This document shows, in pieces, positions 6,148-61,837 of a DNA stretch of 64,000 nt. Under the pieces are notes generated by a model. The model made no database searches, was not told the origin of the DNA, and saw nothing but the letters and a program-made list of their open reading frames with translations. Position 1 is the first letter of the stretch; every line of letters begins with the position of its first letter. The DNA is from a virus. A program made the translations under genes and the position numbers. The DNA lies in the UHGV virus genome UHGV-0149901. One strand, given 5' to 3'.

Positions 6148-6222
6148 GATGGTGTAGCTCAGCGGTAGAGCAGTTGGCTGTTAACCAACTGGTCGGTGGT
6201 TCGAATCCACCCACCATCGCCA
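6148..6222 (+). tRNA. tRNA-Asn (GTT)
   Basis: Cloverleaf by hand: acceptor GATGGTG/CACCATC, anticodon loop CTGTTAA, T-loop TTCGAAT, CCA end. Confidence 0.8.
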
Positions 6223-6227
6223 ATTTA

Positions 6228-6314
6228 GGGGAGTTAGTCCGTAGGGGCAGCGGGGTAGACTGTAAATCTACTGTCATTGCGACTCGGGTGGTTCGACTCC
6301 ATCACTCCCCACCA
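6228..6314 (+). tRNA. tRNA-Tyr (GTA), long variable arm
   Basis: Acceptor GGGGAGT/ACTCCCC, anticodon loop CTGTAAA, T-loop TTCGACT, CCA end. Confidence 0.75.
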
Positions 6315-6318
6315 AATT

Positions 6319-6394
6319 GCCGGTTTAGCTCAGCTGGTAGAGCGCCTGCCTTGTAAGCAGGATGTCAGCGGTTCGAGTCCGCTAACCGGCACCA
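6319..6394 (+). tRNA. tRNA-Thr (TGT)
   Basis: Acceptor GCCGGTT/AACCGGC, anticodon loop CTTGTAA, T-loop TTCGAGT, CCA end. Confidence 0.8.
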
Positions 6395-6618
6395 ATACAA
6401 CGATAAGATCATTACGGTTAATCGTCGTTCATGTGCACAATGACTGGTCGAAAGGTAGTGATCTTACCGTTGTGGTGGATTCGCAGACTGATGCGATAGC
6501 TTTCTTGGATGTTAGGGAAATGCGGCCGCAAATCTTCCCTTTCGCGAGCGGTGATCGTCCGTAGTCCTAATTGGCTGCACCGTATGCCGGAGATTCAGTA
6601 CCGGCCACCACAACGGCC

Positions 6619-6705
6619 GGAGAGTAGGGAGCATGGTGCTCAAGCGGTCTTGAAAACCGTCCCATTGCGCAAGCGATGATGGTTCGATTCCATTACTCTC
6701 CGCCA
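6619..6705 (+). tRNA. tRNA-Ser (TGA), long variable arm
   Basis: Acceptor GGAGAGT/ACTCTCC, anticodon loop CTTGAAA, T-loop TTCGATT, CCA end. Confidence 0.7.
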
Positions 6706-25072: not shown

Positions 25073-25122
25073 ATCGCAATTATCTTATTAAGAAAACAAT
25101 TTGTTTAAAAGAATAAGAAAAC

Positions 25123-45743: not shown

Positions 45744-46331
45744 TGATAGATAAGTACAAACTATTCATAAAGTGAATTGTAAGTGCTAAGATCTGATAGT
45801 TTCCAGTCGTAGACTGGAGACTCGACCTGATGGGTGGGGGTAAGCGTCACTGGCGTCAGGTTTAAAAAAAGCTCACTACCAGCGTAGAACTGGTGCCGTT
45901 TAGGTGTCGGGGAAGGGGGAACCAAAGTGAGCGGAGACAAGGGTCACTTTATGATTGTCGAGTCTGGGGTGTTTCGAGAGGTTGAATCCAGTACTCCCCT
46001 TCATAAAGTGTGGGAAGATCTCGGTTCTGGGGTGCTGTCATCCATAACTTCCCAAGTCTAAGCTGGCAGTAGACTTAGACCATAACTTTTCAGGTTATGA
46101 AACGACCAGGTTGGTGAGGGATTTTTATACTCACCTCCCTGGGAGAGTATTACCTGAAAAGACAACCTCTCACTTCGTTCGAGGTGAACTTCACTCACTT
46201 CGTTCGTTCAGTTCAGGTTTATAAAAACCTGTTCTGGGAAGTAATTTGTTTATTTTAATAATTATTAACACGCACGCGTGTGCGCACGCGCGAGGAAAAA
46301 AATCGGCGCGGCGCTTGATTCAGGAGTTTAT

Positions 46332-46922
46332 ATGACGACGAAGACACCAGCCCGATCGCAAGAAAAAACTCGCAAAAAAGCCAAAAACAAAAATTCTCCC
46401 CGCACCAATTCCACAACGCCTGTCGTAGAGTTCAATCCCCAGCTTAAAACCGTGAAAATCTTCAGTGATGGCTCTTGCCTTAAAAATCCGGGTGGCCCGG
46501 GCGGTTACGGTATAGTTCTCCAGTATCGTGGTGAGGAACGCGAGTTCTCAGATGGTTTTCATAGCACCACCAATAACCGCATGGAGATGATGGGGGCACT
46601 TATCGGGCTGGAGCGTTTGAAATATCCATGCAACGTTATTTTGCACTCTGATAGCCAGTATCTGAAAAACGGCATGACACAGTGGATGAAATGGTGGAAA
46701 CGCAATGGATGGATGACTTCTGACAAAAAACCGGTAAAGAATGTTGATCTGTGGAAGCGTCTGGATGAGGCCGCAAGTCGACATAATGTTCGCTGGAAGT
46801 GGGTTAAAGGTCACGCCGGGCATCGTGAAAATGAAATATGTGATCGACTCGCGAAGATCGCAGCTTTTTCCGCAGCAGATATGCCTCACAAGAAAGATAT
46901 TGGTTTTGTTTACAACAAGTAG
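46332..46922 (+). CDS. rnhA: Ribonuclease HI
   Basis: [15 protein letters not shown], [12 protein letters not shown] blocks; start set at MTTKT after AGGAG. Confidence 0.8.
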
Positions 46923-47772: not shown

Positions 47773-47865
47773 CGGTTGTTAGTGCATATGCATTGACCGT
47801 CTTTTCGTAAGCAATTCATGTAACTAGAAAACAACTTGTTTTAACAAATAACAAAAGGAAAGCAC

Positions 47866-48449: not shown

Positions 48450-48588
48450 TGACAAGGGCCAAATGGCCCTTGTGTTTCGTTGACCGAAATAGAGAGTTTG
48501 CACCTTTACGTTTAGCTTGCTCCCCTTTTATGCCACATCACAATAAAGCCAATAAGAAAACAACTTGTTTAAGCATTAGGAAAAACAC

Positions 48589-53047: not shown

Positions 53048-53166
53048 ACGCTACAAATCCTTCTGCGTGAATAAATAAAGGCCATAAGTTGTGGCCTTAA
53101 ATAAATTGTTTTCTGCCTTTTCTTATTTGTGAAAATAACCACAACTAGAAAACAACGGAGTTAAGA

Positions 53167-53808: not shown

Positions 53809-54347
53809 AGGTCGAAAAAATAGATGTTCTTTCCTTTGTGCTGACGGATCTGGAACGCCTCGATCCGGTTCGAGTGATGATTGAAAACTACGAACCTGGT
53901 AAGGGAAGAATCACCATCACCTGCTACGGAAAAGCGTGGACTGCGGCTTGGTTTGCTATGGGCGGTGATGATGTGCAGACGTTCATTAAGCGAGTTAGCA
54001 ACGATTATCTAATCGACAATTTCGACCCTCAACTGCTAAGCACGGTCGACGATGACAACGATGCAAATCTGCTTTTCGTAAAGTCAGAAATCATAAAGTT
54101 ACGAAGAGAGAGAGAAATAGACGCCGTACTGGCTCGCGAAATGTGGGACGAGGCGGAAAACGCCGATGACGTAAAAGAAAGCTGCTGTTGTTTCGGCGTC
54201 GGTAACAAACTGCTGAATCTCTTTGGTGATGATCCGTGGTATGCCGACTGGCCAACGGTACCAAACCCGAAATACCAGTATCTGGAACGCATTGTGAACG
54301 CGGTACGTGAAGGGCTGAAAGAGTTAGATAAGTTAGAGGCATCGTAA
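53805..54347 (+). CDS. Hypothetical protein
   Basis: Start set at MKVEKI after GGGAGG. Confidence 0.5.
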   Translation: MKVEKIDVLSFVLTDLERLDPVRVMIENYEPGKGRITITCYGKAWTAAWFAMGGDDVQTFIKRVSNDYLIDNFDPQLLSTVDDDNDANLLFVKSEIIKLRREREIDAVLAREMWDEAENADDVKESCCCFGVGNKLLNLFGDDPWYADWPTVPNPKYQYLERIVNAVREGLKELDKLEAS

Positions 54348-54760
54348 TGAGAGAGAAAATCAAGAACCCGGTCGTCGTATTGTATAAACGGGAAACCAGC
54401 GATTCTTATGCGGTATCCATCACTGATGGAAGCCAGAACATGCACGATGGTCTGCTAATGGCCTCCGTATCTCCTGATGATTCTGACTACCCTTTCGCCA
54501 CTTTCGCTATGGTTGGTTACTACATGGCTGCCGAAATTGAGAAGTTGCGTGTTGAGCTGGAGACCGTTAAACAGCGGGAAAAGGATCTGTTTATGGAAAA
54601 TGTTCGACTTAAGTCAGGTATAGCAGGTCTGATACACCTCGGTATTCGATATGCGGATGTCGAAGTCATGAAAATAGCTGGAGATGCCCAGCTTTCTACT
54701 CCCTGTACTGACAGCATCATAAACAGTATTGCATCAGGCGTTTTCACCAAAGAGGGTTAG
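54347..54760 (+). CDS. Hypothetical protein
   Basis: 137 aa ORF, overlapping upstream stop. Confidence 0.5.
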   Translation: MREKIKNPVVVLYKRETSDSYAVSITDGSQNMHDGLLMASVSPDDSDYPFATFAMVGYYMAAEIEKLRVELETVKQREKDLFMENVRLKSGIAGLIHLGIRYADVEVMKIAGDAQLSTPCTDSIINSIASGVFTKEG

Positions 54761-54761
54761 C

Positions 54762-54950
54762 ATGATGAGAACAGTAGAAGTTCGCGCTGAAGATGTAATC
54801 CCAGGTGATGTGGTCATAACATCTAAAGGCAAACGATGTGCGGTTAAATCTTTCTGGATGGAAGGTGACAAAGTGACTCTGTTCGGTACGGATGGTTCCG
54901 AAACGGATTATGACTACGACGAATTGCTTGTTGTTGAGAGAGCTGCCTAA
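54762..54950 (+). CDS. Hypothetical small protein
   Basis: 62 aa from MMRT. Confidence 0.4.
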   Translation: MMRTVEVRAEDVIPGDVVITSKGKRCAVKSFWMEGDKVTLFGTDGSETDYDYDELLVVERAA

Positions 54951-55654
54951 TGACCACCTTTACCAAAGAACAGTTAATCTCCCATGCACGCGAAAGCGTT
55001 AGTTATCTGGAAAACTTGAAAGGACGTGTTAGCAAAGAAGGTGCGGACTGCAAAGTTGTTCTTGAGATGGTTGAACGAGATCTAGAACTGGCACGAATTG
55101 CACTGGCCTCGCTTGAGGCAAAACCAATAGGTGCATTCCACATTGCAGAACAGCAAGTTGACGGCACAAGTGACTACCTCAAGGATGGAGAATGGCCTAT
55201 TGATAATGGAATTATTGAGGTCTACGCCGCCCCACCCATTCCAGTAGTACCTGAAGAAAAACCAATGCCTAACCCTCTTAAAATGTACGCGGTCGATGCT
55301 GTTGCCGCTATTGCAGAGGTGAGAGGCTGGAACGCCTGTCGTGCCGCCATGCTTCAGAGTCAAGATAGTGGCATTAAGGATAGCTGGATAAGCTGTAGTG
55401 AGCGAATGCCTGTAATCGGCGAGCTAAATTGGAGAACTGGTTTTCCTTTGCTGATTACGTGTGAGATCGGCGTTATACCAGCTTATTACGGCTTTGTGAG
55501 CGTTAATGGGGGTAAGCATTATGGTTTTATGGAAAGTTTTAAATACGGAGACGATCGCGGCGGCCATCCTCAAACTAATGAATATGGACTGATTAGCAAC
55601 GTAACCCATTGGATGCCGCTACCAGAACCTCCGCAGGAGTCGCAGAGTGAATAA
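54950..55654 (+). CDS. Hypothetical protein
   Basis: 234 aa ORF. Confidence 0.5.
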   Translation: MTTFTKEQLISHARESVSYLENLKGRVSKEGADCKVVLEMVERDLELARIALASLEAKPIGAFHIAEQQVDGTSDYLKDGEWPIDNGIIEVYAAPPIPVVPEEKPMPNPLKMYAVDAVAAIAEVRGWNACRAAMLQSQDSGIKDSWISCSERMPVIGELNWRTGFPLLITCEIGVIPAYYGFVSVNGGKHYGFMESFKYGDDRGGHPQTNEYGLISNVTHWMPLPEPPQESQSE

Positions 55655-55853
55655 AGCAGAGTTATTTCAGAAAATATCGGCTCTCGCGACTGAATGTCAC
55701 GCTATAGCATCTGAGCTTGATGTTGGCGGTGAACGAACCGAGATGTTCGAAATATACAGTGTGCTGCGCAATCTCTGTCGGCGTGGCTACGCTACTCAGG
55801 TAGGGCGAATGACTAACCCACTACTTTCATTCTGTGATGAGGATGACGAATGA
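55647..55853 (+). CDS. Hypothetical small protein (GTG start)
   Basis: 68 aa ORF overlapping neighbours. Confidence 0.4.
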   Translation: MNKAELFQKISALATECHAIASELDVGGERTEMFEIYSVLRNLCRRGYATQVGRMTNPLLSFCDEDDE

Positions 55854-56233
55854 TGCATAAATCAGTAGCCGGTGAGCTTCAGAAGGAAGTCGATAATACC
55901 ACTGATCTATTGGACGATATTTTAAGCATTCTCGCGCTGCTTGAGGCTGGCGATTGGTCAGAACATTGCACTAAAACAGAGCTAGGCGGTCGGCTTGAAA
56001 GAGAGATTACACGACTGATTAGCGATGCCCAAAATGATTTGTCACCTGAGCATCTCCCCTGCGATGTAGTTCTTGTGCCAGGGATGAGGATACACGAAGG
56101 CGTCAGAACGAAAACATTATTAACCGCATTACAGAGAAGAGCCGAACTAAGCTCGCGGATAAAGTTGATGCCATCCAAAATATTTGATGTCGTCAAATTT
56201 ACGCCATCGCAACATACTGAGAGAGATAAATGA
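55850..56233 (+). CDS. Hypothetical protein
   Basis: 127 aa ORF. Confidence 0.45.
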   Translation: MMHKSVAGELQKEVDNTTDLLDDILSILALLEAGDWSEHCTKTELGGRLEREITRLISDAQNDLSPEHLPCDVVLVPGMRIHEGVRTKTLLTALQRRAELSSRIKLMPSKIFDVVKFTPSQHTERDK

Positions 56234-56856
56234 GCACGGTAGCGAAAGATCTCACAGAAGATATTCTCAATGAAATTATTGCTGGTGCAAATACCTCGCT
56301 TGAGCAACTTCTTGCGTTAGCACTGAGAGCCGAACGTCGAGACAGAAATCGTTTTTATGAGCGATTACCAGGGAAGCGACCAGATAGATCGGATGAAGAA
56401 GGTTGCGATATAGACTACATGGAGCCTTCAGAGATTTATCAACTTGGTAAAGATGACGGCTGGAACGCTTATCACGATGCTGTGATGAAGTTGGATGAAA
56501 AAGTTAAACCTCTTTCTCGACCGGTAGATCACGGTTTCCGCGATAACTGCGAATGCTCTAGTTGCCAGACCACGGCCCGTATTTGTTCCGAATTGACAGA
56601 TAAGTCCAGCCTAATCTACGAAGTTAATGTAGGCGGTAATACATGGGTCGAATGCACAAGAGCTGCATACGTAAGAGCAAAAGACAAGGGTGAATTAACC
56701 AGAGTTGTTACCCATCACCCAAATAATGAGCTTAAAGATCACCAGATTAGAGAACTGGTGAACGAGTTGCGGGATATTGCGGTTCAGTACCACGGAGCGC
56801 AGCAATTGCGGGAGAAAATTGCCAGAGCAGTGAACAACTCAGTCCGTAAAAAATAA
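56230..56856 (+). CDS. Hypothetical protein with CxxC pair
   Basis: 208 aa ORF; CECSSC motif. Confidence 0.5.
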   Translation: MSTVAKDLTEDILNEIIAGANTSLEQLLALALRAERRDRNRFYERLPGKRPDRSDEEGCDIDYMEPSEIYQLGKDDGWNAYHDAVMKLDEKVKPLSRPVDHGFRDNCECSSCQTTARICSELTDKSSLIYEVNVGGNTWVECTRAAYVRAKDKGELTRVVTHHPNNELKDHQIRELVNELRDIAVQYHGAQQLREKIARAVNNSVRKK

Positions 56857-57263
56857 GCAATAGTACGATAAAGAGGCCCCATGCTCTTGATGGGGCCTGT
56901 AGCAACTAGCGTTATGGACGCTGGTTTACGTACTCAATGATCGCTTTGATAATCGCGAACATCGGCGGCACGATTTTGAACAGTAAGTTAACCATAACAG
57001 GCCTCACTTAGTTTTATCGCGCCTAGCTGCAAATACCTTTGGGCTTGCCTTTGCAGTTGCAATATCTGTAGTCGCCAGATACTTACGGCACGATTTCGAG
57101 TTAAGGTAAGGTTTTAGAGTCACCAAAAACCTGGACTTAAATCTTCTTTGAGAACAACGATGTTTGGTAAATGGTCATTATTACCTAGCATGACGGCTCA
57201 ACGTTTCTTGATGAATCCAGTACATTCGGTTAATCTTAGCTCAGTCGCCAGATACTTATGGCT

Positions 57264-57325
57264 CAGGAACAGAGGCGCAAACTCTGTTTCCTTTTAAAAA
57301 GCCCAGCCTAGTCAACTGGGCTTTT
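57264..57325. terminator. Tandem hairpin terminators, likely bidirectional
   Basis: GGAACAGAG-GCGCAAA-CTCTGTTTCC TTTT, then AAAAAGCCCAG-CCTAGTCAA-CTGGGCTTTTT. Confidence 0.65.
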
Positions 57326-57621
57326 TAATGTCCGTTTTTAACCAAATGTACCCACAATACCGCAACATCAGTGTCTTGCGAATTAAGATAGGATTTATAG
57401 AGACTATGTGCAAGTGCATAACTTTGTGGATAACTCGTAAAGGAAAAAGTGGTTTCCGCGGACATTAGTTCAGACAAGGAGTCTGGGAAAGTCAATGGGA
57501 AGTAAAAATTTGTTAAAAATAACGTTTGTTGGAATTGTATATATTTATGCCTTTCAATAGTTAGCATCTTATTAACATCTTTTTTAAGAGATAGAGTTCA
57601 AAAATATATAGCTTCAACATA

Positions 57622-57641
57622 TACTGTATGCATATACAGTA
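57622..57641 (+). promoter_or_regulatory. LexA (SOS) box
   Basis: TACTGTATGCATATACAGTA, exact CTGT-N8-ACAG palindrome, 17 bp upstream of UmuD'-like start. Confidence 0.8.
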
Positions 57642-57657
57642 TTAAGAGGCGAGTATT

Positions 57658-58047
57658 ATGGGCTTCCCTTCTCCTGCGGCGGATTATGCTGAGAGCCGTA
57701 TTTCTCTTGATCAGCAGATAATTAGACATCCTTCAGCGACCTACTTCATGAGGGCAGCTGATAGTCATCATCGTGAGGGAATATTACAGGGTGCATTGCT
57801 GGTGGTCGATTCCTCACTTACCCCGGTTGATGGTTCTCTGCTTGTATGCGCTCTGGATGGGGAATATCGCGTAAAAAGATACCGGAAGTATCCACGTCAG
57901 CATCTGGAGGATTTAAGAACCGGTAAGAAGGAAGCATTGCCAAAGGATGACGATGGATGCACGGGCAGCAATGCCGTGTTTGGTGTGATCACTCACATTA
58001 TCAACGACGCAAGAAGTGGCGAGTTTGATGATTGTCCCGTGATGTAG
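57658..58047 (+). CDS. UmuD'-like protein (naturally truncated UmuD homolog, as phage P1 HumD)
   Basis: Begins MGFPSPAADY at the position matching the UmuD self-cleavage site; S24 peptidase-like fold; no umuC follows. Confidence 0.75.
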   Translation: MGFPSPAADYAESRISLDQQIIRHPSATYFMRAADSHHREGILQGALLVVDSSLTPVDGSLLVCALDGEYRVKRYRKYPRQHLEDLRTGKKEALPKDDDGCTGSNAVFGVITHIINDARSGEFDDCPVM

Positions 58048-58059
58048 GAGAACTGATTA

Positions 58060-58084
58060 GGCGGTGCAATGCACCGCCTTTTTA
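58060..58084 (+). terminator. Rho-independent terminator
   Basis: Hairpin GGCGGTGCAATGCACCGCC plus T5; abuts mrp stop. Confidence 0.7.
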
Positions 58085-59185
58085 TCACACTGCGCGGAAT
58101 GCGATTTCGCCAGGTATTACTTCACCTTGCCAATACATTTGGGCAGCAACGCGATCTGCGAGGTCACGATAAATAGCCGTAAATTCGCTATCTGGACGAC
58201 TAATAACGGTTGGTGTTCCGTTATCCAGATCTTCACGAAGAGAGATATGAAGTGGCATTTGGCCTAACAACTGCGTGTTGTATTTCTCGGCCAGTTTCTG
58301 TGCGCCACCGGTGCCAAAAATTGGCTCGTGATGACCGCAGTTACTGCAAATATGCACACTCATGTTTTCAACGATACCCAGTACCGGCACTTCGACTTTT
58401 TCGAACATCACAATGCCTTTCTTCGCATCGATCAGCGCGATGTCTTGCGGCGTAGTTACCACAACCGCACCAGTTACAGGAATGTTCTGCGCCAGCGTCA
58501 ACTGAATATCACCAGTGCCCGGCGGCATATCGAGAACGAGATAGTCCAGATCAGGCCACAGTGTTTCCTGCAACATCTGCATCAGCGCCTTGCTGGCCAT
58601 CGGTCCACGCCACACCATTGCATTGTCGTCGGTGACCAGATAACCAATAGAGTTGGTTGCCAGGCCATGAGACATGATAGGTGCCATGTGAGTACCGTCA
58701 GGTGAGGTTGGACGTTGGTTTTCCGAGCCCAGCATGGTTGGAATTGATGGACCATAGATATCGGCATCCAAAATACCAACTTTCGCACCTTCAGCAGCCA
58801 ACGCCAGTGCCAGGTTTACCGCCGTGGAGGATTTACCCACGCCGCCCTTGCCTGAGCTGACGGCGATAATGTTCTTCACGCCATTAATGCCTGGTTGGTT
58901 TTTGACGCGCTTAAGCGTGGCAATGTTGTACGACAGCTTCCAGTCAATAGCCTTTGCGCCAGTGATACGGAGCAGATCACCACTACATTGCTCTTTCAGG
59001 TCTTCAAAAGGCTTATTCCACACGAAAGGCATGATTAGTTCGACATGCAGTGTGTCATCCATCAACGCAACATGGTGTAACGCTTTAAGCGTAGTCAGGT
59101 TGTGTTTCAGGGTTGGGTGCTGAAAATTAGCCAGCGTACCGGCTACCATTGCTCTCAGGGCATCCGGCGATTTGGACTCGCTCAT
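58085..59185 (-). CDS. apbC: Fe-S cluster carrier ATPase ApbC/Mrp
   Basis: 366 aa; ParA/MinD-type P-loop GKGGVGKS and CxxC (CSNCGH); strongly resembles enterobacterial Mrp; divergent from metG as in the chromosome. Confidence 0.9.
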   Translation of the reverse strand: MSESKSPDALRAMVAGTLANFQHPTLKHNLTTLKALHHVALMDDTLHVELIMPFVWNKPFEDLKEQCSGDLLRITGAKAIDWKLSYNIATLKRVKNQPGINGVKNIIAVSSGKGGVGKSSTAVNLALALAAEGAKVGILDADIYGPSIPTMLGSENQRPTSPDGTHMAPIMSHGLATNSIGYLVTDDNAMVWRGPMASKALMQMLQETLWPDLDYLVLDMPPGTGDIQLTLAQNIPVTGAVVVTTPQDIALIDAKKGIVMFEKVEVPVLGIVENMSVHICSNCGHHEPIFGTGGAQKLAEKYNTQLLGQMPLHISLREDLDNGTPTVISRPDSEFTAIYRDLADRVAAQMYWQGEVIPGEIAFRAV

Positions 59186-59342
59186 CCCGTCTCCTTTATT
59201 TTAATTTGCGCAATTGTCGCCTTGTAGTGTACTCCAGCTACGACATTTAATCATTTATGAGAAATGCTGTTATCACATGGCAGACATAAGGCCATTTTGT
59301 TACTATCAAGCCCCTTTTCACTACAAAGAAGTAATGCCTACT

Positions 59343-61376
59343 ATGACCCAAGTCGCGAAGAAAATTCTGGTGACGTGCGCGCTGCCGTACGCTAACGGCT
59401 CAATCCACCTCGGCCATATGCTGGAGCACATCCAGGCTGATGTCTGGGTTCGTTACCAGCGAATGCGCGGCCACGAGGTTAATTTCATCTGTGCCGACGA
59501 TGCCCACGGTACGCCGATCATGCTGAAAGCACAGCAGCTTGGTATCACACCGGAACAGATGATTGGCGAAATGAGTCAGGAACACCAGACTGATTTTGCA
59601 GGCTTTAACATCAGCTATGACAACTATCACTCGACGCACAGCGAAGAGAACCGTCAGTTGTCCGAGCTTATCTATACTCGCCTGAAAGAGAACGGTTTTA
59701 TTAAAAACCGCACCATCTCTCAGCTGTACGATCCGGAAAAAGGCATGTTCCTGCCGGACCGTTTTGTGAAAGGCACCTGCCCGAAATGTAAAGCACCGGA
59801 TCAATACGGCGATAACTGTGAAGTCTGCGGCGCTACTTACAGCCCGACTGAACTGATCGAGCCGAAATCGGTAGTTTCTGGTGCTACGCCGGTAATGCGT
59901 GATTCCGAACACTTCTTCTTTGATCTGCCTTCTTTCAGCGAAATGTTGCAGGCATGGACCCGCAGCGGTGCGTTGCAGGAGCAGGTGGCAAACAAAATGC
60001 AGGAGTGGTTTGAATCTGGCCTGCAACAGTGGGATATCTCCCGCGATGCGCCGTACTTCGGTTTTGAAATTCCGAACGCACCGGGCAAATATTTCTACGT
60101 CTGGCTGGACGCGCCGATTGGCTACATGGGTTCCTTCAAGAATCTGTGCGACAAACGCGGCGACACTACCAGCTTCGACGAATACTGGAAGAAAGACTCC
60201 ACCGCCGAGCTGTACCACTTCATCGGTAAAGATATTGTTTACTTCCACAGCCTGTTCTGGCCTGCCATGCTGGAAGGCAGCAACTTCCGCAAGCCGACCA
60301 ACCTGTTTGTTCATGGCTATGTGACGGTGAACGGCGCAAAGATGTCCAAGTCTCGCGGCACCTTTATTAAAGCCAGCACCTGGCTGAATCATTTTGACGC
60401 TGACAGCCTGCGTTACTACTACACTGCGAAACTCTCTTCGCGCATTGATGATATCGATCTCAACCTGGAGGATTTCGTTCAGCGCGTGAATGCCGATATC
60501 GTGAACAAAGTGGTTAACCTGGCCTCCCGTAATGCAGGCTTTATCAACAAGCGTTTTGACGGCGTGCTGGCAAGCGAACTGGCTGACCCGCAACTGTACA
60601 AAACCTTTACTGATGCTGCTGAAGTGATTGGTGAAGCATGGGAAAGCCGCGAATTTGGTAAAGCGATTCGTGAAATCATGGCGCTGGCTGATCTGGCTAA
60701 CCGCTATGTCGATGAACAGGCTCCGTGGGTGGTGGCGAAGCAGGAAGGGCGCGATGCCGATCTGCAGGCGATTTGCTCTATGGGCATTAACCTGTTCCGC
60801 GTGCTGATGACGTACCTGAAACCGGTACTGCCGAAACTGACTGAACGTGCAGAAGCATTCCTGAATACAGAACTGACCTGGGATGGTATCCAGCAACCGC
60901 TGCTGGGCCATAAAGTGAATCCGTTCAAGGCACTGTATAACCGCATCGACATGAAGCAGGTTGAAGCACTGGTGGAAGCATCCAAAGAGGAAGTAAAAGC
61001 CGCTGCCGCGCCAGTAACTGGCCCACTGGCAGATGATCCGATTCAGGAAACCATCACCTTTGACGACTTCGCCAAAGTTGACCTGCGCGTGGCTCTGATT
61101 GAAAACGCGGAGTTTGTCGAAGGTTCTGACAAACTGCTTCGCCTGACGCTGGATCTCGGTGGCGAAAAACGTAATGTCTTCTCCGGCATTCGTTCCGCTT
61201 ATCCAGATCCACAGGCACTGATTGGTCGTCACACCATTATGGTGGCCAACCTGGCTCCGCGTAAAATGCGCTTCGGTATCTCCGAAGGCATGGTGATGGC
61301 TGCTGGCCCCGGCGGGAAAGATATCTTCCTGTTAAGCCCGGATGCTGGTGCTAAACCAGGCCACCAGGTTAAGTAA
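59343..61376 (+). CDS. metG: Methionyl-tRNA synthetase
   Basis: 677 aa from [28 protein letters not shown] (HIGH motif), KMSKS motif, zinc knuckles; track ORF start 59214 is an upstream in-frame extension. Confidence 0.95.
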
Positions 61377-61396
61377 TTAAGCAACCATTCTTCACA

Positions 61397-61426
61397 ATGC
61401 CCGGCAATACGCTGGGCATTTTCATT
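61397..61426 (+). terminator. Rho-independent terminator after metG
   Basis: Hairpin ATGCCCGG-CAATACG-CTGGGCAT plus T-rich tract. Confidence 0.6.
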
Positions 61427-61537
61427 TAGACACAATCCCTTCTGATTTACACATACCCTAAAACAATTTGTTTTCTGCCTTTTGTTGATTGAGATAATAA
61501 ACCACATAAGAAAACAACTTGTTTTGGAGTGGTTTAA

Positions 61538-61837
61538 ATGTTGAACATTACCCAAGCCTACCAGGTGGCATTGATCAGCTCATCTCATACATCAGAGGAA
61601 GATGCTCGCCGATTCATGATCGCAAGCAATGAGCTGGATTGGGTTTCACAAATTGAGTACGGTTGCATTGTCCACGCCGGGTTACAGGATGATGTCTGGA
61701 AAGACAACTTGCGTCGATATGGTATATCCGAGGGCGCGATTTCGAACATTCAGAAGGTACTTGATGTAGGCTTCGACTCTGTACATTTCGATTGTGGCGC
61801 ACCGGTCGTTGAAGGGCTTGAGTGCTGGCAATGGTAA
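61538..61837 (+). CDS. Hypothetical protein
   Basis: 99 aa ORF preceded by the element-type intergenic motif and GGAG RBS. Confidence 0.45.
   Translation: MLNITQAYQVALISSSHTSEEDARRFMIASNELDWVSQIEYGCIVHAGLQDDVWKDNLRRYGISEGAISNIQKVLDVGFDSVHFDCGAPVVEGLECWQW

Follow-up and report, generated by a model that had tools for sequence, protein, structure and literature searches.

The stretch of DNA analysed here, 64,000 nucleotides (nt) of UHGV virus genome UHGV-0149901 (the window), belongs to an Escherichia SSU5-type phage-plasmid and carries a copy of the chromosomal gene pair apbC (mrp), encoding an iron-sulfur (Fe-S) cluster carrier ATPase, and metG, encoding methionyl-tRNA synthetase (MetRS). 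We consider it probable, at roughly 85%, that the pair stems from one old capture by the Escherichia/Shigella branch of SSU5-type elements, that both genes have been kept functional, that metG has been patched from the host, and that the additional metG is linked to antimicrobial tolerance. By a narrower margin of belief, we also lean towards opposite fates for the two genes on one 3.3-kb insert, apbC having become a gene of the element, no less diverged than its backbone, and metG having been kept host-like by repeated conversion.

Two housekeeping genes on an SSU5-type phage-plasmid

The block and its immediate borders comprise the following features:

58059..58084, + strand: intrinsic-terminator-like hairpin with its T run, in the gap from humD to the apbC stop codon, outside the chromosomal homology
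58085..59185, - strand: apbC (mrp), Fe-S cluster carrier ATPase, 366 amino acids (aa), identified by equivalog hidden Markov model and retained motifs
59186..59342, no strand: divergent intergenic region of 157 nt, of which only the last ~47 nt (59296-59342) are chromosome-like
59343..61376, + strand: metG, methionyl-tRNA synthetase, 677 aa, identified by equivalog hidden Markov model and retained motifs
61377..61455, + strand: element-specific metG 3' flank with a terminator hairpin, 79 nt, in all plasmid copies including those of a second lineage (below)

Both products score above the cut-offs of their equivalog models: ApbC reaches 758.4 bits against NCBIfam NF008669 (cut-off 348) and MetRS 1019.9 bits against NF001100 (cut-off 587). 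ApbC of the window and of the second lineage alike keeps the deviant Walker A motif GKGGVGKS and the C-terminal CxxC (CSNC), and MetRS keeps the class I signatures HLGH (residues 22-25) and KMSKS (333-337), the zinc knuckles CPKC (146) and CEVC (159), and the C-terminal tRNA-binding (dimerisation) domain (TIGR00399 metG_C_term, 162.9 bits, residues 543-677). The two genes diverge as mrp and metG do in Escherichia coli K-12 (b2113/b2114), which bears out the native divergent synteny proposed in a first-pass annotation of the window. We place the metG start at the ATG at 59343; the program-made open reading frame (ORF) opens instead at the TTG at 59214. A 610-aa ORF antisense to metG (59400-61232, - strand) is read as a shadow ORF in a conserved, GC-richer gene, with no gene evidence of its own.

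Homology to K-12 and to all 80 enterobacterial chromosomal loci compared (the matches listed from a MetG scan of 185,579 species genomes, in which E. albertii, E. fergusonii, and E. marmotae are not represented) extends from 58084-58092 to 61376-61383, i.e., from stop codon to stop codon. Immediately outside lie the two hairpins that had been noticed earlier as terminators, each a predicted G+C-rich stem-loop with a T run: a 9-bp stem (58059-58079) followed by TTTTTA on the left (-17.5 kcal/mol), and a 10-bp stem (61396-61420) followed by TTCATTT, with the T run reaching 61426, on the right (-16.9 kcal/mol). The metG 3' flank (61377-61455) is present in none of the 80 loci, and a short-word blast of both flanks against these loci gave no match, so the flanking terminators are unlikely to be donor-derived. 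Where the left neighbour varies between plasmids (humD, an IS1 remnant, or der), the sequence shared on that side is confined to the T run and the right arm of the hairpin. Plasmid p22AR0322A (L089:2662-2742) has an IS1 fragment in place of humD, whose end meets the apbC 3' flank at GCACC(A/G)CC, the bases of the right arm of the window hairpin; this suggests a microhomology-mediated deletion or join.

The chromosome-like ~47 nt between the genes comprise an extended -10 element (TGnTACTAT) along with the metG leader. Of nine other main-lineage plasmid copies, seven match the whole intergenic region (59186-59342) with 100% identity and the remaining two with 99.4% and 94.9%. Destruction of the -35 region of the metG promoter by an indel was considered and dropped, as the extended -10 element is conserved. 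With terminators at both ends and no SSU5-type gene-start motif ahead of either gene, the block appears to form a self-contained insert that supplies its own promoter region.

The 8 kb around the block are 98.8-99.9% identical in nt sequence, over their full length, to complete circular E. coli plasmids of ~109 kb (blast), and 96.8% identical to Escherichia phage Cyrano, which is the pLF82 phage-plasmid. The near-identical complete circular plasmids measure 108-110 kb, within the range of about 100-120 kb expected of such circular, non-integrated replicons. Compared by blastn and tblastx with Salmonella phage SSU5, the window is collinear up to 54321 (76-87% nt identity over 44.2-54.3 kb) and resumes at 61456, and a ParB and helicase region comes next in a near-identical plasmid (L001). 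On these grounds we assign the window to the Escherichia SSU5-type phage-plasmids. Cyrano is an inducible phage whose virions have been observed (PMC9928086).

The first-pass annotation had left open whether the element captured an essential aminoacyl-tRNA synthetase gene or whether the window holds an unusual integration or assembly junction. The G+C content, 0.43-0.46 in the flanks, climbs to 0.50 over 58-61 kb, which would fit an assembly chimera or a chromosome-plasmid integration junction. However, the order humD-apbC-metG-DUF5983 recurs in ~190 complete circular plasmids, finished independently in many laboratories, from E. coli, Shigella, E. albertii, E. fergusonii, and E. marmotae, as well as in phage records including Cyrano, and SSU5 backbone lies on both sides. 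Past 61.4 kb, where a junction would have continued collinearly with ordinary chromosome, the window follows SSU5 instead. This refutes the junction, the chance of which we regard as practically nil, and upholds capture.

The SSU5-type backbone segment at 50.2-54.3 kb was found in 571 plasmids in PLSDB (Escherichia 217, Shigella 6, Klebsiella 185, Enterobacter 82, Salmonella 48, and Citrobacter 24), and the apbC-metG block in 191 Escherichia and 6 Shigella records. Among the PLSDB matches listed, none was a true plasmid of Klebsiella, Enterobacter, Salmonella, or Citrobacter; the block matches from other genera are 0.5-0.7-Mb chromosome-like records with 82-84% identity. We conclude that the block is, in sequenced elements, a near-core trait (~88%) of the Escherichia/Shigella SSU5-type branch only. 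As to a second, chromosomal metG, all 5,426 complete E. coli genomes have one, and 219-231 further copies are on plasmids. Because every complete genome keeps the chromosomal copy, the plasmid metG is always supernumerary.

Three sets of matches stand apart from this distribution. A record labelled as the chromosome of Enterobacter hormaechei strain B56 (L006, CP170191.1) has metG and apbC identical to K-12 (dS 0.00) and is probably mislabelled or an E. coli genome. Genes mrp-metG with 66-68% identity to the window occur in OQ572407.1 (Pseudomonas phage Y5, UNVERIFIED and unannotated) and in CAKLQF020000011.1 and CAKLQH020000007.1 (Acinetobacter phage MD-2021a). We rejected these three records as independent captures; they are likely host chromosome included in a prophage or bin prediction.

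Histories of apbC and metG

A match to the ApbC protein that has the same unusual length (366 aa, 81% identical) revealed a second plasmid lineage on E. coli contigs (L085-L088, e.g., DAFUVE010000025.1), whose backbone genes are 75-85% identical to those of the window family, with a synonymous divergence (dS) of 0.7-1.1. In this lineage apbC-metG occupies the corresponding position and is followed, as in the window, by the metG 3' flank with its terminator, the motif unit, and the DUF5983 gene. The genes to the left of the block are different ones (for a BOF-domain protein, hok, cytochrome c peroxidase, and cytochrome b562). Genes for an Rpn-family nuclease and IS605 OrfB lie downstream. Both plasmid ApbC lineages share derived states (a loss of three N-terminal aa, W44L, NKP for HSA/NSA, H>N, and L>M) that were found in no chromosome examined. 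Because these states and the non-chromosomal metG 3' flank are common to both lineages, one ancestral capture is indicated rather than two. The donor search, which combined the MetG scan of species genomes with an ApbC protein search, returned Escherichia chromosomes as the closest among the matches listed, at 88.8% for the block.

The window apbC is 82.4% identical in nt sequence to that of K-12 (dS ~1.5, nonsynonymous divergence (dN) 0.036) and about equidistant from Escherichia, Citrobacter, and Salmonella; among the matches listed, the best chromosomal ApbC is 94-95% identical in aa sequence and the best apbC 82% in nt sequence. Its G+C content at third codon positions (GC3) is 0.53, against 0.62 in K-12 and 0.475 in the pooled neighbouring element genes, and only 0-12 of 196 discriminating sites are in the K-12 state across the plasmid alleles. 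We interpret apbC as an anciently diverged copy that has drifted toward the base composition of the element. The apbC of the second lineage is further removed (dN 0.135 from K-12 and 0.114 from the window; dS saturated). Since a 366-codon frame is open throughout and dN/dS is ~0.065 between lineages (with dS saturated) and ~0.011 within the main one, apbC is being maintained by selection and is no decaying passenger.

For metG the values are 94.7% nt identity to K-12, dS 0.25, and dN 0.005; MetRS is 99% identical to that of K-12, with seven conservative differences, and GC3 is 0.61 (K-12: 0.63; element-gene pool: 0.475). The description of the pair as ordinary chromosomal genes thus stands for metG and fails for apbC, and the comparison of base composition with the flanks, proposed at the same time, shows a shift toward the element pool in apbC and none in metG. 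The divergence of metG from K-12 is about that between two Escherichia species: K-12 and another Escherichia species differ by dS 0.28 in metG and 0.58 in apbC. Because the chromosomal silent rate of apbC is only about twice that of metG, the six-fold gap in dS between the two plasmid genes is not due to rate. Among 10 main-lineage plasmid copies, nucleotide diversity is 4.2% for metG (mean dS 0.21) and 1.9% for apbC (mean dS 0.083), the reverse of the chromosomal rate order, with dN/dS ~0.011 for both. Both ORFs are intact in 14 of the 14 copies examined, again with dN/dS ~0.01, a pattern indicating that both genes are kept intact under strong purifying selection.

If the element had recently and passively picked up E. 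coli chromosomal DNA, through aberrant packaging or recombination and with no selected function, this would account for the retained native synteny and for a MetG protein 99% identical to that of E. coli. Such a recent pick-up is refuted by divergence: apbC matches any Escherichia chromosome compared at 82% identity, and the block has flanks that are not chromosomal; moreover, the block resides in two plasmid lineages with a backbone dS as given above, and selection has preserved its frames. We give recent pick-up hardly more credence than a chimera.

The metG alleles are mosaic. In a four-gamete test, 51% of site pairs fail (124 informative sites), and for pairs within 100 nt of each other the failure rate is below that of every one of 500 position permutations (p = 0.002). 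At the 103 discriminating sites, defined as those where the plasmid majority differs from K-12, the K-12-type states are clustered, at places that differ between alleles (runs test, p <= 0.003 in six alleles). Such chromosome-type tracts cover 15 consecutive discriminating sites in one allele (L095, nt 243-477), blocks at nt ~420-900 in p22AR0322A (L089), and, in the second lineage, the larger part of the gene; the metG of that lineage is nearer to K-12 than the window allele is (dS 0.13, with tracts of 99-100% identity). Inside tracts, the plasmid-native MetRS residues T112, A151, T275, T276, and I442 turn into the Escherichia type; all of these native residues except A151 match non-Escherichia enterobacteria.

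From this pattern we infer that metG has repeatedly been overwritten by chromosome-to-plasmid gene conversion, which would be bounded by element-specific sequence on either side and in which apbC may now be too diverged to join. Exchange between phage-plasmids also likely contributes, because the downstream DUF5983 gene has a dS of only 0.29 between the lineages. There was no sign of flow from plasmid to chromosome: chromosomal metG alleles are 93.9-95.0% identical to the window allele (60 sampled across 5,639 records).

The recurrent plasmid residues bear on a further alternative. Mobile second-copy aminoacyl-tRNA synthetases usually confer inhibitor resistance, and the plasmid MetRS could be an inhibitor- or toxin-insensitive variant, comparable to the mupA/mupB isoleucyl-tRNA synthetases (IleRS) that act against mupirocin. 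That role would be the usual one for such genes, and T112, A151, T275, T276, and I442 do recur as differences from Escherichia. Nevertheless, the enzyme differs from K-12 at only the seven conservative positions, most of which have Citrobacter/Salmonella/Klebsiella states and are hence ancestral, the differences are erased wherever a chromosome-type tract is present, and there is no above-cut-off match to resistance-type synthetase models. We regard an insensitive variant as very improbable, though a shade less so than recent pick-up. The plasmid gene resembles mupA/mupB as a supernumerary synthetase gene on a mobile replicon, and differs in showing no sign of a divergent insensitive enzyme.

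The accessory slot and the SSU5 gene-start motif

The surroundings of the block contain the following features:

54347..61455, no strand: lineage-specific accessory stretch that is absent from SSU5, where ~1.5 kb of other genes take its place
57622..57641, + strand: LexA (SOS) box TACTGTATGCATATACAGTA, upstream of humD, read from the sequence as a perfect match
57658..58047, + strand: humD, a P1-type UmuD-like gene (NCBIfam HumD equivalog, 220 bits; 84-86% nt identity to humD of P1/P7/D6)
61456..61527, + strand: SSU5-type intergenic unit, 84% identical to SSU5 88314-88382, where the backbone resumes
61538..61837, + strand: DUF5983-family ORF, the first backbone gene past the block, from homologue annotation and a tblastx match to SSU5_105

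The 7.1 kb missing from SSU5 consist of DUF551 and small ORFs, the P1-type humD with its LexA box, apbC, and metG; humD is the left neighbour of the block in most plasmids. The LexA box and P1-type humD form a module common to P1-like and SSU5-like phage-plasmids, and the Cyrano homologue of humD, CYRAN_98, rises from log2 ~7 to ~12 inside macrophages in published RNA sequencing (RNA-seq) data (PMC9928086). Two plasmids, NZ_CP146383.1 of E. marmotae (L090:2271-3743) and NZ_CP148383.1 of E. coli, represent a rare sub-lineage with der, an essential ribosome-biogenesis GTPase gene, directly left of apbC, and thus with a second captured host gene that is essential and related to translation. This plasmid der is 92.1% identical to the E. 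coli chromosomal der and stands next to apbC on one plasmid only among 5,426 complete E. coli genomes. Its presence in the same accessory slot may point to a selected tendency to duplicate translation genes of the host.

Beyond metG, the intergenic unit at 61456-61527 contains two copies of the palindrome AAAACAAnTTGTTTT, at 61460-61474 and 61511-61525. The first-pass annotation had matched motifs at 61.46-61.53 kb to copies at 47.8, 48.6, and 53.1 kb, and these matches proved to be exact or to have one mismatch, far above chance: TTGTTTTCTGCCTTTT is exact at 53106 and 61468, and AGAAAACAACTTGTTTT occurs without mismatch at 47826 and 61509 and with a single one at 48555. Allowing up to 3 mismatches, AGAAAACAACTTGTTTT has 11 matches against 0.30 expected (a count reached in 0 of 100 shuffles), and the palindromic core AAAACAAnTTGTTTT, allowing up to 2, has 10 against 0.79 expected. 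Copies of AAAACAAnTTGTTTT are at 25089, 37594, 47824, 48553, 53098, 61460, 61507, and other positions in the window, usually preceded by TAAG. The palindrome is also conserved in SSU5, where 33 kb contain 10 copies. The core (T/C)AAGAAAACAAnTTGTTT lies 20-45 nt upstream of the start codons of many + strand genes in the window, a near-identical plasmid, and SSU5, and the motif occurs ahead of neither apbC nor metG.

We read the (T/C)AAGAAAACAAnTTGTTT unit as a gene-start signal of the SSU5 element family and not, as had been entertained, a generic host promoter; AAAACAAnTTGTTTT is probably an operator or promoter element of an element-encoded regulator. A sigma-70 consensus scan found no convincing promoter in the SSU5 motif unit or in the apbC-metG intergenic region. 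Manual sigma-70 candidates in the motif unit (TTGATT-N16-TAAGAA) were weak, and the unit was left as a gene-start signal.

Elsewhere in the window, the RNase H gene (46278-46922) is annotated as frameshifted and partial in a near-identical plasmid (L001:3287-3935) and is intact in SSU5 (SSU5_090). An Rfam scan of the window found only tRNAs, which form a cluster of four (Asn-GTT, Tyr-GTA, Thr-TGT, and Ser-TGA) at 6148-6705 in a low-GC stretch (0.38-0.39 at 6-9 kb).

Expression and possible roles

Published data on Cyrano in its host LF82 offer a view of transcription. The apbC homologue CYRAN_99 (annotated as MinD-like) is listed as a moron in LF82 at 9x local background (PMC9928086, Table 1), and metG reaches ~1.6x local background in the lysogen (PMC9928086); normalised counts in the lysogen are ~92 for apbC and ~16 for the MetRS gene, CYRAN_100 (PMC9928086, S1 Table). 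Each chromosome is accompanied by ~5.5 copies of Cyrano, and ciprofloxacin induces the phage 39-fold (PMC9928086). The block resembles phage morons, including that of Cyrano in LF82, in being bounded by terminators, having a promoter of its own, and lying within an array of phage genes; it differs from typical morons in that both genes duplicate housekeeping functions, metG being essential, and metG, unlike CYRAN_99, falls below the moron threshold in LF82.

That metG occurs on Escherichia/Shigella SSU5-type phage-plasmids is already known; it is annotated in hundreds of public records and was the subject of a 2024 study. As cited in later work (PMC12452169; bioRxiv 10.1101/2025.09.12.675607), the metG of pWPMR2, an SSU5-supergroup element of Shigella sonnei, promotes antimicrobial survival (Tam et al. 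2024, doi 10.1101/2024.10.27.24316207), its expression giving rise to a subpopulation predisposed to survive and to acquire resistance. An altered MetRS level or altered homocysteine editing is reported to raise persistence in E. coli (PMC11004401). What the window and pWPMR2 have in common is a further metG carried by a Shigella/E. coli phage-plasmid of the SSU5 type; the same block occurs at 97-98% identity in SSU5-type plasmids of S. sonnei, and the "highly variable" metG copies described in the literature accord with the 4.2% allele diversity found here. In contrast to the Shigella element, to which it was compared by description, the window is an E. coli-type relative whose best matches are E. 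coli plasmids. Apart from the primary pWPMR2 preprint, a literature search found no mention of SSU5 together with metG, and the accounts of phage-plasmid metG, as far as they were accessible and again leaving that primary report aside, do not mention the apbC partner, the mosaic history, the second lineage, or der.

We propose that the chromosomal apbC(mrp)-metG pair was captured once, long ago, by an ancestor of the Escherichia/Shigella SSU5 branch (Cyrano/pECOH89/pWPMR2 type), at what is now the 3' end of a hypervariable accessory slot, and that selection would since have kept both genes functional. ApbC would have evolved as an element gene, diverging, shifting in base composition, and being transcribed in the lysogen, and the MetRS protein would have stayed near the host enzyme while metG DNA was overwritten patchwise from chromosomal metG. 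Compared with the E. coli chromosomal mrp-metG locus, the plasmid block retains the genes, their divergent orientation, and the metG -10 element and leader, but it lacks the yehE/yehF flanks and has other terminators, a replaced upstream half of the intergenic region with a ~10-nt insertion, and an ApbC shorter by three N-terminal residues. The result would be a supernumerary metG on a multicopy replicon whose expression, going by the cited summaries of the pWPMR2 work, could produce an antimicrobial-tolerant subpopulation. In some cells, extra MetRS might perturb Met-tRNA charging, homocysteine editing, or the mix of dimers with host subunits.

Alternatively, the extra metG, possibly with apbC, may mainly serve the lytic cycle by supplying Met-tRNA and initiator charging during replication, a role compatible with the tolerance phenotype. 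metG is co-oriented with the surrounding early and accessory genes and nearly silent in the LF82 lysogen, and the element has four tRNA genes, its SSU5 relatives also encoding NrdAB, ThyA, and DHFR. Yet the + strand terminator (58059-58079) and the antisense apbC separate the upstream operon from metG, no SSU5 gene-start motif precedes metG, and relatives in Salmonella, Klebsiella, and Enterobacter manage without the block. We therefore see a mainly lytic role as unlikely, although it is the most credible of the alternatives.

Several points weigh against our proposal of an old capture with host-patched metG and a link to tolerance. No chromosome among the matches listed exceeds 89% identity to the whole block. 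Some tracts could stem from E. albertii, E. fergusonii, E. marmotae, or phage-plasmid exchange. The proposal leaves the role of ApbC without explanation. A near-silent lysogen metG in LF82 fits constitutive lysogenic conversion poorly, although the 95%-identical chromosomal copy may draw off some of its reads. Finally, the link to pWPMR2 is drawn from secondary citations and from S. sonnei plasmids that have the same block.

Among phages it is unusual to find an essential gene of translation, in supernumerary copy, on a phage-plasmid that is both infectious and multicopy. Phage-plasmid metG is present in ~4% of complete E. coli genomes and has been linked, in the work as cited, to antimicrobial survival in epidemic Shigella. 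Its overlooked partner, apbC, is the gene actually transcribed in the lysogen and merits functional study. The contrasting gene histories, the recurrent metG conversion, the second lineage, and the occasional der in the slot may together suit a short follow-up. The mosaic suggests that elements and chromosomes regularly exchange metG, which bears on the rise and spread of tolerance-associated alleles. If apbC and metG have indeed met opposite fates, the phage-plasmid would keep re-sampling the metG allele of its host and would ferry alleles between Escherichia species.

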